Shown piece by piece: positions 22,260-50,728 of a stretch of 64,000 nucleotides of DNA (its first letter is position 1; the number at the start of each line of letters is the position of its first letter). The DNA is from a virus (Duplodnaviria > Caudoviricetes), in the IMG/VR virus record IMGVR_UViG_3300028886_000028, positions 224,001 to 288,000 of that record. One strand, 5' to 3'. A model generated the notes under the pieces. The model searched no databases. It saw only the letters and a list, made by a program, of their open reading frames with translations, and had not been told where the DNA came from. Both the position numbers and the translations under genes were made by a program.

Positions 22260-23882
22260 ATGATGGAAAAGGAAAAGCATAGTTTCGTACCTAATTTTGC
22301 TAACATAGCATTTACTGAAAATGGCGCAATATCTAAGTTTACAACTGGCAAGGTTATTACCGACCAATTCGGTAAGGCCGCTAACTATCGTGGACGTGAA
22401 ATTAGTGACGTTTTTAAAGACCAGGAATTACTTTGGCTTGAAAATAAAGAACAAGCAGTTCGTTTCCCGTTCTATTTGAGAATGGTGACTCGTAAGGTAA
22501 AGGTTAACGATAAAAACACCACTGATAAAGTTCAGAAAGGACAAGGCGTTCGTGACGAATCCTTTAAGCGTTTGCTTTGGCTTGCTGCCAATCAGCCGGA
22601 TTCGTTTTATAAGAACATATGGGTGTTACCTATGGTTGGCTGCTGGAAGGATTTGTGGACTTTGATGTATTACGATGTAATTCTCAAAACAAATGCCATT
22701 GACCGTTCCATAATCTTCGACCTTATTAATCAAGGTTTGAAGTGTTCTTCCCATATGGAATTGATTAAGAAGTTTATGCCTCGTGTTAAGACTAACACTA
22801 AGTGCAAAACTGATTGGACCCAGATTACAAACTCTCTTGCTCGTGAATTCGCAAATTATAACGGAATGTCATACAAGGATTATAACCATTTGAAGACAAG
22901 TGGCACAGCCCATGACTTTCAGAAACTTATTTGCAGCGGTCGTTTCAACGACATCAATTGGAATTTAATTCCAGGACGCGCTCTTAGCAAGATAACTACT
23001 CAGAAGTTCTTGTCAAAGCATGACCTTGAAAAAGGTTACACAGAATGGGTAATTTCTCAGCCTACTGTGAAATATACTGGCTATGTGTATGAATTGGCAA
23101 AGGAAGTGATAACTTCAGTCGGTTGGAGCGCAAGGGCCAATAAAATGCCTATTTTCAAGAAAATAACTATTGATAAACAGTTCGATGAATTAGTTAAAAA
23201 GGCAGTAGAAGACGGCAATGTTCTTGGAAACGTATGGTGCGCACTTGACACCAGTGGCTCAATGGGCGCTAGAGTTGTGGGAGATATAAGTGCATACGAT
23301 ATTTGTGTATCGTTGGGAGTATTCTTTTCTACAATTAACACAGGCGCATTCCATAAAAATGTAATAATGTTTGACAACACTTCGCAGGTTAAACAACTCA
23401 AAGGTGGTTTCTGCGATATGATTAATGACATTATTCATTCTAAAACTGCTTGGGGAGGTACTAACTTCCAAAGTGTCATAGACGAAATTGTAAGGGTTCG
23501 TAAAGAAAACCCTAGCATTCCTCTTGAAGATTATCCTCAGACATTGCTTATAGTTAGTGATATGCAATTCAATCCGGTTGGAGGCAACGAAGATACTAAT
23601 TATCAAGCAATGAAAAAGAAACTCTATACTGTTTTCCCAGAGGAATTTGTTAACAGTATGAAGTTTATTTGGTGGCAGGTAACTGGCCGTACAAATGATG
23701 CCCCTGCTACACTCGATGATAATGGATGCTATTTCTTTAGCGGATTCGATGGAAGCATAGTTTCTCTTCTTCTTGGTGGAGAAATGGCAGAAACTGAGGC
23801 TGAAACGAAAGTAAAGCCAACAATGGAGGAAATGATTAACGCCGCACTAGGACAAGAAATATTATCTTATGTAATAGCATAA
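22260..23882 (+). CDS. DUF2828-type helical + vWA protein (Ro60/TROVE-like architecture)
   Basis: N-terminal TENGA; GQGVR and GCWKDL segments; C-terminal MIDAS DTSGSM, WGGTNFQ, IVSDMQF. Confidence 0.75.
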   Translation: MMEKEKHSFVPNFANIAFTENGAISKFTTGKVITDQFGKAANYRGREISDVFKDQELLWLENKEQAVRFPFYLRMVTRKVKVNDKNTTDKVQKGQGVRDESFKRLLWLAANQPDSFYKNIWVLPMVGCWKDLWTLMYYDVILKTNAIDRSIIFDLINQGLKCSSHMELIKKFMPRVKTNTKCKTDWTQITNSLAREFANYNGMSYKDYNHLKTSGTAHDFQKLICSGRFNDINWNLIPGRALSKITTQKFLSKHDLEKGYTEWVISQPTVKYTGYVYELAKEVITSVGWSARANKMPIFKKITIDKQFDELVKKAVEDGNVLGNVWCALDTSGSMGARVVGDISAYDICVSLGVFFSTINTGAFHKNVIMFDNTSQVKQLKGGFCDMINDIIHSKTAWGGTNFQSVIDEIVRVRKENPSIPLEDYPQTLLIVSDMQFNPVGGNEDTNYQAMKKKLYTVFPEEFVNSMKFIWWQVTGRTNDAPATLDDNGCYFFSGFDGSIVSLLLGGEMAETEAETKVKPTMEEMINAALGQEILSYVIA

Positions 23883-33711: not shown

Positions 33712-33837
33712 CAAATAATAAATTAACATTTTTTTACAAGTTTTATTTTGCTTTTAAAATGTTTTTTTGTATATTTGCATAAATAACTCTAAATTTGAAA
33801 TTTCTCAACCTTGGCAAAGGCTAAAAACAATAAAGCA

Positions 33838-33973
33838 AGGAATCTAACAGCAAAAACTATATTTAGCAATTGGGGCCGTTGACGGTAGTTCGATTCTGCC
33901 TGCCCTGACGAACAATATGCGCTAAACATCAGGGTATAGTTCAGTGGTAGAATAACGTATTTAAATGATTCCT
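33838..33973 (+). ncRNA. ACAGCAA cassette 3 with circularly permuted tRNA-Pro-like domain
   Basis: aggaatc/gattcct; 3' half (T-arm, tgccctga) precedes 5' half (tcagggta, D-arm). Confidence 0.85.
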
Positions 33974-33981
33974 AACATTAA

Positions 33982-34055
33982 CGGGGTGTAGCTCAGTAGG
34001 TTAGAGTGCTAGTTTTGGGAACTAGTTGTCGCAGGTTCGAGTCCTGTCACCCCGA
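33982..34055 (+). tRNA. tRNA-Pro(TGG)
   Basis: ctagt-tttggga-actag. Confidence 0.92.
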
Positions 34056-34345
34056 CAATAACCGCTGAGGCGCAAGAGCAATCGCAAGTGAGACGATAGT
34101 AAATAATGGACGGCGTGTAAACAACACATAAAAAGCCTCACCCATTTGAGGGTAGAATCAATCCGATAATCACTCTACGCAGTCAGGTTATAAAAATAAT
34201 ATCAAATAATCGTTCCACGTAAGTCCAATAAACTGTGGGTTCGTGAAAATCGAAAGAATGTACCAGGTTATCTTCCTGGAGAGGTATGGGTGGAGGTAAG
34301 GTCTCTAGCAAAAGCCCAAACGTGATAGTTGATATTATATCGTCA

Positions 34346-34458
34346 AGGAGTCTAACAGCATATGTATAATTACGACGGTTAGCTTAGTGGTTAAAGCCTT
34401 GGATTTTACTAAGAGACGTTGGTTCGAATCCAGCACCACCGGGTTTAAAATGACTCCT
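34346..34458 (+). ncRNA. ACAGCA cassette 4 with degenerate tRNA-Lys(TTT)-like body
   Basis: aggagtc/gactcct; D- and T-arms intact, acceptor mismatched, 6-nt anticodon loop. Confidence 0.8.
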
Positions 34459-34495
34459 ATTTTTTGAAAAACATTAATTTAAAAAAATAAAGATT

Positions 34496-36397: not shown

Positions 36398-37168
36398 ATG
36401 GATATTAGTAAATTAAATGAAATTTTAGAGAAAAGTAAAAGTATGAGTGATGTTGCCAGATGTATTTTTGGCAAAGAAAATTATACTAATCGTGAAAAAT
36501 GCAAAAAAATCATTGAAGACTATGGTATAGACTGGAAAAAATGGTTAGCAGAAAAAAATATTAAGCCAAAAAGATATTGTCTTTATTGTGGTAAAGAAAT
36601 AACAGAAGGTGATAGTAGAAAAAAATTTTGTAACTCTTCTTGTGCAGCCAGCTATAACAATAAAGGTAAAAAACATTCTGATAATACAAAAAAGAAAATT
36701 TCAGAAGTATTACAAAAAAAAAGTGCTTCTTTTGATGGGACTATAAAACCAATAAAGGCAAGGTATAGAAGAAGTAAAGAAAATACCAATTGTTTGTATT
36801 GCGGAAAAGAGCTGAATGGCTATAGATTTTGTGATAATATATGTCGTTCAAAGTATAAAGCAAAACAATACATAGAACGTTGGAAAAAAGGAGAGGAAAC
36901 AGGATTAAGTGGTAAATATGGAATGGCAAGGGCAGTAAGAAATTATATTTTTGAAAGCAAAGAAAATAAATGTGAGTGCTGTGGCAATAACTATATAAAT
37001 CCATATACAGGTTTATCAGTTCTTCAAATACATCACAAGGACGGAGATTGCACGAACAACAAGGAAGAAAATCTTCAATTGCTTTGTCCAACTTGTCATG
37101 CAATGACAGAAAATTTCGGAAGCAGAAATAAAAATGCTACTAGAATAGATAATAGGAAAAGATATTAA
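36398..37168 (+). CDS. free-standing HNH endonuclease with Zn-ribbon repeats
   Basis: CLYCGK..FC repeats; LQIHHKDGD..NN..NLQLLCPTCH. Confidence 0.9.
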   Translation: MDISKLNEILEKSKSMSDVARCIFGKENYTNREKCKKIIEDYGIDWKKWLAEKNIKPKRYCLYCGKEITEGDSRKKFCNSSCAASYNNKGKKHSDNTKKKISEVLQKKSASFDGTIKPIKARYRRSKENTNCLYCGKELNGYRFCDNICRSKYKAKQYIERWKKGEETGLSGKYGMARAVRNYIFESKENKCECCGNNYINPYTGLSVLQIHHKDGDCTNNKEENLQLLCPTCHAMTENFGSRNKNATRIDNRKRY

Positions 37169-43293: not shown

Positions 43294-43549
43294 CAAATAA
43301 AAAGTTGAAATTTATCTGTGGAATACAAACACGTTCAATCCAAGCAAGAAGGGGAACGATTTATAGGTATCAATCATAGACAGATAAAAATCTTGCAAGT
43401 ATTTCAGCTTTACTTTTAATGGTATGAGATAAACTAAGGGCTTATGTGAGGTTGTCACGAGCGTAGCATAGGAGGTGCAAGCCCACGTTTCACGAAGCTC
43501 AATGATTGACATCTATTTGTGACGTGGTTGTTTATCAATTGCCATATAT

Positions 43550-43632
43550 GGATGCGTGTAAGGACTCCTCTGGGGAGTGACCGTGTGATTGACATCAGGT
43601 AACAAACATAGGTTCGAATCCTATTGCATCCA
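43550..43632 (+). ncRNA. tRNA-like element (acceptor + T-arm, aberrant D/anticodon arms)
   Basis: ggatgcg/tgcatcc; atagg-ttcgaat-cctat. Confidence 0.55.
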
Positions 43633-43818
43633 CAAATGCTTGATAATGAGTTTGGAGCAGTTAAAAAGGTGTGTGAAGCTCTAAATTAGTAGTTAGGCGG
43701 TATTATGTATGTGCTCTCGAAAGATTGAGCTGATTTAATATCGGTTAATGAACATGAAACAATTTCTCATTTCCGCAAGCATCAATAAAAATTGGGATGA
43801 AGATTAAGTAGTAGACAT

Positions 43819-43897
43819 GCATGGGTATTCAAGCGGCTGAAGCGCCTAGTATTACAAACTAGTACACCATACGTATGTTCGAATCCTATTGCATCCA
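43819..43897 (+). pseudogene. chimeric tRNA-Val(TAC)-like sequence
   Basis: ctagt-attacaa-actag; 3' end identical to 43612-43636; acceptor unpaired. Confidence 0.5.
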
Positions 43898-44047
43898 CAA
43901 AAGGTGTTCGAAAAAACGTAGTTCGAAATGCGTTGAAGTAGATTAAATGTGGAAAGTCGTACCCTTCCGAGCAGACGTGTTTTCCACGCCTCGTTTGGGC
44001 TAAAGTGGGCAGAGATTCACGCCTCCAACACAGCATCTTTTTTATAT

Positions 44048-44127
44048 AGGGTATTAGCTCAGTTGGTTTAGAGCGTCTGACTTACATTCAGAAGGTTTCG
44101 TGGGTTCGATTCCCTCATACCCTACCA
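44048..44127 (+). tRNA. tRNA-Val(TAC)
   Basis: tctga-cttacat-tcaga; encoded CCA. Confidence 0.9.
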
Positions 44128-44249
44128 AGGAAACTAACAGCAAGGTTAAAAATGGCTTGTAACCCGTGGGTCACAGGTTCGAATCCTGTCTTAGGCTTTA
44201 AAAGTCTGGGTAGCTCAGTTGGCAGAGCAACGTTAATAAAATGTTTCCT
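44128..44249 (+). ncRNA. ACAGCAA cassette 7 with circularly permuted tRNA-Thr(TGT)
   Basis: aggaaac/gtttcct; gg-cttgtaa-cccgt, T-arm, acceptor closed by ttaaa, D-arm, acg. Confidence 0.9.
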
Positions 44250-44255
44250 AAAAAT

Positions 44256-44329
44256 GTTGGTGTAGCTTAGTTGGTTAAAGCATTTGACTGATATTCAAAA
44301 GACCGGGGGTCCGAGTCCCTCCATCAACA
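44256..44329 (+). tRNA. tRNA-Ile(GAT)
   Basis: tttga-ctgatat-tcaaa. Confidence 0.88.
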
Positions 44330-44344
44330 CACAATACAATTTTT

Positions 44345-44416: not shown

Positions 44417-44423
44417 CTAGACA

Positions 44424-44500
44424 AGGGAACTAACAGCAAGTTATTATTTATGTTAAAACATCAGACTGCAAATTTGAAAACGTTGAACAAATAGTTCCCT
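44424..44500 (+). ncRNA. ACAGCAA cassette 8 with isolated Cys(GCA) anticodon arm
   Basis: agggaacta/tagttccct; tcaga-ctgcaaa-tttga. Confidence 0.82.
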
Positions 44501-44516
44501 AATATTCATATTAAAC

Positions 44517-45444: not shown

Positions 45445-45573
45445 AGGAAGTTGACAGCAAACGATAAGAAATTTTCCCAAGCCGGAGGTCGTTGGTTCGA
45501 ATCCAACTAGGAATTGTGTTTATCCTATAGCTCAGATGGTTTAGAGCGCCAGCTATTTCATTTAATGCTTCCT
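45445..45573 (+). ncRNA. ACAGCAA cassette 9 with circularly permuted tRNA-like domain (CCC loop)
   Basis: aggaagt/gcttcct; ttcccaa-gccgg, T-arm, tagga/tccta, D-arm, ccagc. Confidence 0.85.
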
Positions 45574-45578
45574 AAAAT

Positions 45579-45655
45579 AGCCTCAGGGGATGCTAGGCGT
45601 GTCCGTCACTCTGTCACAGTGTTCAATCAGGTGGGTTCGAATCCCATTGGGGCTG
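45579..45655 (+). tRNA. tRNA-Asp(GTC), atypical D-arm
   Basis: cact-ctgtcac-agtg; G73. Confidence 0.75.
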
Positions 45656-45682
45656 CGTAGTATAAAACGTTTCCTAAAATAT

Positions 45683-46568: not shown

Positions 46569-46645
46569 GGCCCTATGGCAGAGTGGTCGATTGCGGTCGC
46601 TTCTAAACCGATTTATCATCGTGGGTTCGAATCCTACTAGGGTCA
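46569..46645 (+). tRNA. amber suppressor tRNA (CTA)
   Basis: gtcgc-ttctaaa-ccgat; ggcccta/tagggtc; canonical T-arm. Confidence 0.75.
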
Positions 46646-46829
46646 CTACGGCTTGGTGTATCCATTGAGATACTGAAATAGGTTAGACAAGCACAAGTCA
46701 CGTAAGAAATGACAGGCAGGCAGTAATGCTGTGCGAGGATTAGTCCCTTGCTCTAATCTCTTGATGGTAATAGAGACCTTTTTAAGTTAGAGGTTAAACT
46801 TATATTTTTTTAAAAAAGTATTAATAATT

Positions 46830-50389: not shown

Positions 50390-50466
50390 GGCGTGATAGC
50401 TCAGTTGGTCAGAGCAACAGACTCATATTCTGTGGGCCGTAAGTTCGAATCTTACTCACGCTACCA
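50390..50466 (+). tRNA. tRNA-Met/Ile2(CAT)
   Basis: acaga-ctcatat-tctgt; ACCA end. Confidence 0.88.
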
Positions 50467-50578
50467 AGGGAACTTACAGCAAGTATTCATCGTGAAGGAA
50501 TGGTCTACTTGAAAGTCTTAAGAGCTTTTGTGCGTAAGCACTTGTGGGTTCGAATCCCACCGAAAATAAAAGTTCCCT
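50467..50578 (+). ncRNA. ACAGCAA cassette 10 with acceptor-less tRNA-Leu(TAA) body
   Basis: agggaactt/aagttccct; aaagt-cttaaga-gcttt, variable arm gtgc/gcac, T-arm. Confidence 0.85.
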
Positions 50579-50728
50579 AATTTCTCCATTTTAATAATTT
50601 TAATATTGCAGTGCGTTTTTTTTTAAAAATGCACCGCAATTTTAGTTTAACTATTATTAACTATTATAATTTTGTTTTTCAATGTTTTTTTTGTATATTA
50701 CATATAATAAAACGAATTTAGTTTAAGT

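Follow-up and report, generated by a model that had tools for sequence, protein, structure and literature searches.

A circularly permuted tRNA-like cassette in a rumen phage, a probable Y-RNA-like tRNA mimic

The cassette and its locus

The element analysed here is a stretch of 136 bases in the genome of a phage of about 401 kb from the rumen. The window, that is, the whole stretch of DNA that was analysed, is 64,000 nucleotides long, corresponds to positions 224001-288000 of a 401,138-bp virus record rated complete, and carries the element at 33838-33973. Besides genes for DnaK, TyrRS, a sigma factor and further genes typical of huge phages, 25 transfer RNA (tRNA) genes and a transfer-messenger RNA (tmRNA) gene were counted in the window. 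The element, hereafter the cassette, consists of a tRNA-like body in which the 3' half precedes the 5' half, set within a frame formed by the flanking sequences, which we call the handle. The cassette is followed by an ordinary tRNA-Pro gene and lies 10 kb downstream of a gene encoding a DUF2828 protein, the predicted fold of which resembles that of Ro60. The features of the locus are listed in Table 1.

Table 1. Features of the cassette, its flanks and related elements, in window coordinates.
Feature	Position	Strand	Remarks
Ro60-like (DUF2828/DUF7788) protein gene	22263..23882	+	Proposed partner, 10 kb upstream of the cassette
Putative promoter, Bacteroidota-type	33747..33777	+	TTTG 33747-33750, 19 nt, TATATTTG 33770-33777; read from sequence
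5' leader	33778..33837	+	Present in RNA contigs
Handle clamp, 5' strand AGGAATC	33838..33844	+	7 bp with 33967-33973
Unpaired conserved handle motif UAACAGCAA	33845..33853	+	
Internal loop, 5' side, variable	33854..33865	+	No conservation in alignments A2 and A4
Anticodon-arm top, 2-bp mini-hairpin GC/GC, 7-nt loop AATTGGG	33866..33876	+	33866-33867 with 33875-33876
Lower anticodon stem, 3' strand CGT	33877..33879	+	Pairs with ACG 33955-33957
Variable loop TGAC	33880..33883	+	C48 able to make the Levitt pair with G15 (direct reading)
T arm GGTAG / TTCGATT / CTGCC	33884..33900	+	
Acceptor stem, 3' strand, plus discriminator-position A	33901..33908	+	
Linker closing the acceptor stem, 20 nt	33909..33928	+	CCA not encoded
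Acceptor stem, 5' strand	33929..33936	+	
U8, A9 and D arm (GTTC / AGTGGTA / GAAT; G18, G19)	33937..33953	+	D arm itself 33939-33953
A26 and lower anticodon stem, 5' strand ACG	33954..33957	+	End of the tRNA body, after nucleotide 29
Internal loop, 3' side, A/U-rich	33958..33966	+	Consensus of 54 frames A-rich
Handle clamp, 3' strand GATTCCT	33967..33973	+	
Short tail up to the tRNA-Pro 5' end	33974..33981	+	
Ordinary tRNA-Pro(UGG), co-transcribed neighbour	33982..34056	+	68.8 bits
Sister cassette, Thr(UGU)-type permuted body	44128..44249	+	Same handle
Sister cassette, third permuted body type	45446..45572	+	Loop with CCAAG

The permuted tRNA body

A preliminary description, made from the sequence alone, had reported a permuted tRNA with its 3' half upstream of its 5' half, and all the elements that it listed are present. 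The acceptor strands (33901-33908 and 33929-33936) pair over 8 bp, i.e., the canonical 7 bp and one extra T-A pair, and are closed by the reported 20-nt linker. When 33929-33957 is joined to 33866-33909, the product is a flawless cloverleaf that ARAGORN calls tRNA-Gln(ttg), i.e., UUG, with a 7-bp acceptor, a D arm featuring both G18 and G19, a 5-bp anticodon stem (ACGGC/GCCGT), a TGAC variable loop and a TTCGATT T loop. The rotated body thus shows the complete cloverleaf expected of a functional permuted tRNA gene; loop position 33, where such a tRNA should have U33, is an A. No tRNA was called among 3000 dinucleotide-preserving shuffles of the joined sequence. Moving the join by one base changes the ARAGORN call to 'Gln|Pro' or 'Pro', and the anticodon register is as ambiguous as the preliminary description held it to be. 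Minimum free energy folding of the colinear RNA gave a non-significant value (z -1.0); tRNA-like folds are usually non-significant by this measure, and thermodynamic folding (z -1.0 and -0.3) is uninformative here.

Conservation and covariation

A covariance model, R1, was built from nine cassettes. MAFFT alone misaligned the acceptor arms, and sequences were therefore realigned with the model. An alignment fitted to a model favours pairing, and both slid partners and rows outside the training set were used as controls; the margin is large. R1 retrieved 26 full-length matches at E<3e-6. Two of these, L064:225-342 and L068:10006-10126, turned out to be pairs of tandem tRNAs and were taken out, leaving 24 true permuted cassettes in related phages. 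In the 24 cassettes, 96.7% of cells are paired, versus 32-50% when partners are slid by 1-3 columns, and changes on both sides are found at 23 of the 27 pairs. The 15 untrained rows are paired at 95.4%. The clamp helix of the handle is 99% paired and shows compensatory changes, and covariation is strongest in the acceptor helix, which features 5-6 pair types per position. The alignment of homologues had been proposed as a check on the permuted arrangement, and in it the permuted arms are conserved. Every arm is kept through compensatory changes, in agreement with the earlier view that the order is not the outcome of random decay. These data support a genuine, selected, circularly permuted tRNA-like domain.

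The body type found in the cassette has only two further distinct homologues, in the contigs L147 (identical to L172 and L173) and L167; a pattern search for others returned mostly tandem tRNAs. Both retain the anticodon stem (ACG|GC / GCCGT), the D arm and the T arm. The acceptors, GGTGGCG/CGTCACC and GCGGGAT/ATCCCGC in the homologues and CAGGGTA/TGCCCTG here, are mutually unrelated. The mini-stem of the anticodon arm is conserved in all three sequences, but its loop is not, being AUGUCCA and AUCAGAA in the homologues and AAUUGGG in the cassette. Because neither the anticodon nor the identity set is conserved, 'Pro' and 'Gln' are empty labels and neither is meaningful for this body. The 'Pro-like' designation of the preliminary description, like any other isotype, is unsupported, given the differing loops and acceptors and A33. 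In the Thr-type sister cassette, a canonical YUUGUAA loop is kept in six phages.

The position between tRNA-Val and tRNA-Ile is occupied by the body type of the cassette in L147 (2358-2602, minus strand) and by the Thr type in the window (44048-44330). Bodies have therefore been exchanged within a constant handle. In L167 (104-220, minus strand), the acceptor 3' strand is followed, inside the closing loop, by ACCA (discriminator and CCA), as if the body had been copied from a CCA-encoding tRNA gene.

The handle

The handle was absent from the preliminary description. It consists of a clamp helix formed by the flanks, followed on the 5' side by UAACAGCAA, and of an A-rich stretch that precedes the 3' clamp strand. 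Pattern scans of viral contigs recovered this frame in many phage contigs. ACAGCA is invariant across 54 frames, the selection of which required ACAGCA. In the genome of the rumen phage, a strict 18-nt handle pattern has 8 matches on the forward strand and none on the reverse. Altogether, 11 frames were identified in the genome (10 of them in the window), all on the plus strand and all within tRNA clusters. Clamp sequences vary among the copies while pairing is always kept, and the G-U pairs involved are valid only for an RNA of the plus strand. Frames located between tRNAs have 5' ends that abut the CCA of the upstream tRNA and 3' ends that lie 6-10 nt before the next tRNA.

Permuted tRNA bodies account for four of the inserts carried by the handles and normal-order tRNA-like bodies for two; the others are shorter. 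The two sister cassettes were detected by a scan for a T arm followed by a downstream acceptor partner. The preliminary description had noted that the cassette and the Thr cassette (44128-44249) are broken in the same register, and this is correct (ACG|GC here, ACG|GG there). It had also taken the coincidence as a sign of a tRNA-breaking mechanism, which finds no support. Both cassettes are broken at this position as a result of the architecture that they share, in which the handle departs from the anticodon stem after nucleotide 29 and before nucleotide 30. In cassettes of other types within the handle family, the exit from the anticodon arm is different.

Other frames hold different inserts. 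The frame at 34344-34460 (GGAGTC/GACTCC) contains a tRNA-like body in normal order with a shortened anticodon loop, reported by ARAGORN as 'tRNA-???' with anticodon 'tt' and scoring 38.7 bits with the Rfam tRNA model; its GGATTTTACC core recurs in five contigs (L022, L064, L080, L126 and L128). A short handle RNA at 44422-44503, directly preceding the phage tmRNA gene, has a 5-6-bp stem with the loop CUGCAAA, mimics the anticodon arm of tRNA-Cys(GCA), and has counterparts in L022, L064, L080, L126, L032 and L142. The 'tRNA-Leu(taa)' called by ARAGORN at 50486-50568 (37.1 bits with Rfam) lies entirely within the handle frame 50465-50580 (GGGAAC/GTTCCC), and is probably a tRNA-like handle RNA rather than a working tRNA.

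Two other readings of the handle were discarded. Self-cleaving ribozymes or intron flanks were considered, and the handle was compared with the hammerhead, hairpin, hepatitis delta virus-like/theta, twister, pistol and hatchet cores; Rfam E-value scans were empty. A promoter of the extracytoplasmic function sigma factor or phage type, read from GGAAC...CGT, is contradicted by a spacing that ranges from 45 to 170 nt and by ends that covary as a helix, with G-U pairs valid on the plus strand only.

Transcription of the cassette

Sequences covering the cassette were found in RNA runs from bovine and sheep gut metatranscriptomes. Contigs from three studies, spanning 33815-33975 (161 nt, 0 mismatches), 33778-33983 and 33794-33973, are colinear with the genome and include the linker. 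A joint of 33957 to 33866 was found in none of the contigs of four RNA runs, though contigs drop rare forms and mature tRNAs. The colinear contigs are moderate evidence for a stable colinear RNA.

Transcription may start from a Bacteroidota-type promoter located upstream of the leader. The Bacteroides promoter consensus is TTTG / TAnnTTTG, and the motifs at 33747-33777 are likely a promoter of this type, consistent with contig starts at 33778, 33794 and 33815. No contig covers 33693-33754, in the gap that holds the putative promoter. The contigs end at 33973, 33975 and 33983, just before tRNA-Pro; this would fit release by RNase P at tRNA-Pro, a processing step of which contig ends are a weak hint.

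The DUF2828 protein and its association with the handle

The product of the gene at 22263-23882 is 539 residues long and matches DUF7788 (1.4e-20), DUF2828 (weakly) and phrog_850, annotated 'RNA-binding protein' (1.4e-50). The Pfam TROVE model (PF05731) has no match across the whole genome. An AlphaFold (AF2) model of the protein (pLDDT 82, pTM 0.80) predicts a ring of HEAT repeats and a C-terminal vWA domain, the organization of Ro60. Its only full-length structural matches are Ro60 proteins, namely those of frog and human, Deinococcus Rsr and the protein of Thermus phage phiLo (Foldseek probability 1.0, TM about 0.5). VIA Z scores against Ro60 are 14.1-16.8 over about 410 residues, and matches to the vWA domain only reach at most 11.2. 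In sequence, the protein is weakly similar to mycobacteriophage proteins annotated 'Ro-like RNA binding protein'. A protein-atlas look-up returned viral DUF2828 clusters only, and homologues were found in 680 phage records.

Handle and protein occur together. A DUF2828 protein is encoded in all five handle-bearing phage records with a completeness of at least 90%, and in none of four control phage contigs. In three of the five records the protein is only 32-35% identical, and across phage lineages with a handle identity is only 25-35%. The DUF2828 gene was not seen in three further handle-bearing contigs (G007, G008 and G011), which are incomplete and hence uninformative.

Six contexts other than the window have handles on the strand of the DUF2828 gene, either adjacent to it or no more than 4 kb away. 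In the phage records G004, G005 and G006, handle RNAs lie 2.1-3.7 kb downstream of the gene, and in G005 and G006 one of these RNAs is a permuted tRNA mimic. Two metagenome-assembled genomes provide closer placements: in a Bacteroidaceae genome the gene is preceded by a handle RNA at a distance of 60 nt, and in a Saprospiraceae genome three handle RNAs lie directly downstream. The sixth context is the cultured Escherichia phage nataliec (Felixounavirus, Felix O1-type), which carries four handle RNAs 0.7-1.5 kb downstream of the gene, one with a permuted tRNA body. Placement on the same strand within about 4 kb was recorded for G004-G006, L157, L160 and phage nataliec.

Other features of the window

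A non-coding, unannotated stretch (34057-34346) separates tRNA-Pro from the handle RNA that follows. Each of the four RNA runs covers it with one contig of about 355-405 nt (from 34027, 34069, 34078 or 34082 to 34432-34443) with the highest depth of the region. Parts of it are 85-90% identical in the relatives L132 and L080, and it has no match in Rfam. An HNH homing-endonuclease-like gene (phrog_1271, 2e-17) is located inside the tRNA region at 36398-37168.

Some tRNA-like features are atypical. The 'tRNA-Asp(gtc)' at 45579-45656, 78 nt long with an aberrant D region, is called by ARAGORN only; the Rfam tRNA model finds none. The same T arm and acceptor 3' strand (...GTTCGAATCCTATTGCATCCACAAA) occur in two copies, at 43540-43640 and 43800-43905, neither of which is called as a tRNA by any tool. 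The former, whose interior is odd, can be matched to a 5' acceptor strand (GGATGCG) located about 90 nt upstream. A tRNA with a CUA anticodon (amber suppressor, labelled 'Pyl' by ARAGORN) is encoded at 46569-46646, and could be a sign that some of the phage uses a recoded TAG; the majority of the open reading frames of the window are open under table 11.

Discussion

We think it probable that the stretch is a small non-coding RNA gene, the product of which is a Y-RNA-like tRNA mimic and the likely partner of the Ro60-like ring protein of the phage. The RNA, of about 136-190 nt, would have a promoter of its own and form the first unit of an operon of small RNAs and tRNAs, and its 3' end would probably be freed by the RNase P cut at the following tRNA-Pro. 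Two modules may be distinguished in it. The first is the handle, in which a 7-bp clamp is set next to an internal loop with UAACAGCAA on its 5' side and A-rich on its 3' side. The second is an L-shaped, rotated tRNA body, in which the T arm is followed by the acceptor, closed by the 20-nt loop, and by the D arm. The handle exits the body at the nicked anticodon arm, between nucleotides 29 and 30. If Y RNAs are a guide, it would serve as the docking site for the DUF2828 ring, and the tRNA-shaped head would then expose a tRNA-like surface to a factor that recognizes tRNAs. Candidates for such a factor are a processing or modification enzyme, a nuclease, and a host anti-phage tRNA nuclease. The elements of the fold with their conservation and covariation, the colinear RNA in the libraries, the Ro60 fold and the genomic link of handle with protein come directly from the data; that the protein binds the handle, how the 3' end is made and what the head contacts are inferred.

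Several observations weigh against this interpretation. No handle lies beside the DUF2828 gene in the window, where the cassette is located 10 kb downstream on the same strand, and the same lack of a neighbouring handle was noted in eight contigs (L150, L151, L152, L156, L158, L159, L161 and L162). The counts on which the co-occurrence of handle and protein is based are small, though they come from independent lineages. The handle also frames tRNA-like bodies in normal order and plain hairpins, and could thus serve another purpose. Its motif, CAGCAA, is unlike the GNCGAA or CGAA of known Ro60-binding Y RNAs (PMC4201824, PMC12135203). The Rfam model of YrlA, the tRNA-like Y RNA of bacteria and phages (RF02553), does not match the cassette at E<=10 in searches with 761 nt and 166 nt. 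Finally, neither true ends nor strand nor rare spliced forms can be read from assembled contigs, and uncovered parts and contig ends are at best weak hints.

It is unlikely, but conceivable, that the cassette is a structured spacer of a tRNA operon, unconnected to the Ro60-like protein. The handle would then be a module for processing, stability or recombination, or the site of another protein, and the body would either attract RNase P or RNase Z or shield the transcript. The placement of frames directly between tRNAs, the ordinary-order bodies that are also framed by handles, and the occurrence of different body types at the syntenic Val-Ile position in the window and in one relative are all in keeping with such a role. 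Handles are, however, found beside DUF2828 genes outside tRNA arrays, and handle and gene co-occur across lineages in which the protein has diverged to 25-35% identity. Moreover, a stem followed by an internal loop with a motif is the layout of Y RNAs.

That the cassette is a genuine tRNA gene in circularly permuted form, of the kind known from the red alga Cyanidioschyzon merolae, is very improbable. In such a route, cuts flanking the handle would be followed by joining of nucleotides 29 and 30 by the RtcB RNA ligase of the phage (G000:C1:316545-317735, outside the window, 197 bits), and RNase P together with 3' trimming and CCA addition would open the acceptor loop. The rotated cloverleaf is complete and has all the nucleotides of the tertiary pairs; the 7-bp acceptor stem is the main determinant for RNase P (PMC4201824); the presence of RtcB makes ligation conceivable; and the Thr-type sister keeps its canonical loop. 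Yet the cassette is most likely not a decoding tRNA, because loops and acceptors are unrelated in the homologues, so that the 'anticodon' differs in each of the three sequences, because position 33 is A, and because ordinary tRNA-Gln is present. The genome encodes tRNA-Gln(UUG) and tRNA-Gln(CUG) at 189.6 kb, and tRNA-Cys(GCA) as well; the cassette would be redundant, and the idea that it fills in for a missing tRNA-Gln was rejected. CCA is not encoded. A search of the phage genes, for which control genomes were positive, found no homologue of the splicing endonuclease (PF01974) in the complete 401-kb genome, and neither Rnl1 nor Rnl2 was found in the phage. The contigs of all three studies are colinear, keep the linker and lack the joint, although rare forms can escape contigs.

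The notion that the cassette is a functionless, decayed remnant of a rearranged tRNA gene, for instance a tandem pair that has lost its outer halves, is hardly credible: tandem tRNAs do mimic the order of T arm and D arm, two such pairs scored with the covariance model, and Chen et al. gave the same warning (PMC4201824), but the acceptor strands pair with each other over 7-8 bp and covary in 24 cassettes, the clamp made by the flanks is conserved and covaries too, and distant phages have kept the element, which is also represented in RNA libraries, so that decay is refuted as far as the comparative data reach.

If the cassette RNA is a partner of the Ro60-like protein, as we favour, the consequences extend beyond this phage. 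Ro60 and its Y RNAs form a conserved and poorly understood RNA-surveillance system in which the purpose of the tRNA mimicry of YrlA is unsettled. The handle described here would add a second, sequence-distinct handle, paired with a second family of Ro60 fold, and would suggest a function for DUF2828, a family without an assigned one. In this family a whole tRNA is mimicked, with its anticodon arm, and each genome has many varieties of the mimic. The role of tRNA-shaped Y RNAs thereby becomes testable in a cultured E. coli phage (Felixounavirus). Cassettes of this kind should be annotated neither as tRNA genes nor as pseudogenes.

Two broader proposals, which we advance together and tentatively, as their joint truth is doubtful, concern the reach of the handle. 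According to the first, the clamp-plus-ACAGCAA handle would define a large class of ribonucleoproteins, as yet uncatalogued, with DUF2828 Ro60-like rings at their core, present in phages of many hosts and perhaps in giant viruses. A homology to the Class I RNAs of social amoebae, themselves unexplained, is conceivable. According to the second, the handle would be a portable adaptor of giant phages that displays tRNA look-alikes of Thr, Leu, Cys-anticodon and 'blank' types, the cassette being one of the latter. Were this so, the look-alikes could act as decoys or sensors of host anticodon nucleases, or steer the quality control of the phage tRNA pool.

Comparison with known systems

Permuted tRNA genes, in which the 3' half lies upstream of the 5' half and a short linker connects the acceptor strands, are known in Cyanidioschyzon merolae and in other algae and archaea. 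Their transcripts mature into decoding tRNAs through a bulge-helix-bulge splicing endonuclease and a circular intermediate. The cassette differs from genes of the C. merolae type in that the endonuclease gene is absent from the phage, the anticodon is not conserved and the RNA is colinear. Two-piece (permuted) tmRNA is likewise a natural permuted tRNA-like domain in bacteria. The cassette differs from it in having neither an mRNA-like part nor alanine identity; cmscan with RF01850 gave 5.6 bits for the T arm and acceptor, a meaningless score.

The Class I RNAs of dictyostelids consist of a short stem followed by a motif ending in ACAGCAA and a variable interior (RF01414; PMC7919456), and have been searched for with the pattern GTTGR-CCTTACAGCAA ... 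GTCAAC-TG (PMC5054030). The handle has the same stem joining the ends, the same 5'-side motif ending in ACAGCAA and a variable interior, and the tail 3' of the clamp reads UGU in other phage lineages, a feature shared with Class I RNAs. However, Class I RNAs are eukaryotic, only 42-65 nt long and devoid of a tRNA body, whereas the cassette RNA is at least 136 nt long, and their known binder is an RRM protein. RF01414 has no match at E<=10 on any of the frames tested (the cassette and short frames), and homology with Class I RNAs is no more than a possibility.

Thermus phage phiLo provides another parallel. Its Ro60 binds phage Y-like RNAs, as seen in a solved structure (PMC12135203; PDB 9L5Y), which is among the best structural matches of the DUF2828 protein of the window (Z 16.1). 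As in the rumen phage, a Ro60-fold protein is accompanied by several phage-encoded RNAs (Yrl1 and Yrl2) organized as stem, bulge and stem. The phiLo RNAs differ in carrying the CGAA motif and in being located directly upstream of the gene, and no complete tRNA body has been described for them (PMC12135203).

Also close to the cassette is YrlA, which is bound by Rsr/Ro60 (RF02553; Chen et al. 2014, PMC4201824; Wang et al. 2018, bioRxiv 10.1101/312249). The order of modules, i.e., T arm, closed acceptor-like stem-loop and D arm, is the same, and is supported here by covariation. In both, pairing of the two ends of the RNA creates a stem beside an internal loop, the 5' strand of which bears a conserved motif, the RNA lies on the same strand as the gene for a Ro60-fold protein, and several copies occur per genome (YrlA and YrlB). 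RtcB is encoded in the same genome, which recalls the rsr-yrlBA-rtcBA operon of Salmonella. The Thr-type sister cassette scores 34.3 bits with RF02553 (E 7e-6), below the Rfam gathering score of 69 bits.

Further traits that characterize YrlA are tRNA-type modifications and use as a substrate by RNase P or the CCA enzyme. The two RNAs also differ in several respects. The handle has UAACAGCAA in place of GNCGAAN0-1G (PMC4201824), and CGAA is missing from its 5' loop. The partner is a DUF2828/DUF7788 protein, undetected by the Pfam TROVE model. The anticodon arm is retained here as a 3-bp stem and a 2-bp hairpin with a 7-nt loop, whereas the Y stem replaces this arm in YrlA. YrlA genes are placed within about 4 kb of the Ro60 orthologue; the 11 copies found here are scattered through tRNA arrays, at least 10 kb from the protein gene. 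The preliminary description had pointed to YrlA, and the shared module order and motif-bearing terminal stem make the pointer apt. By analogy, the cassette RNA is best read as close to YrlA and as working like YrlA, without being a formal member of that family, and most likely represents a new variant within the known tRNA-mimicking Y RNAs.
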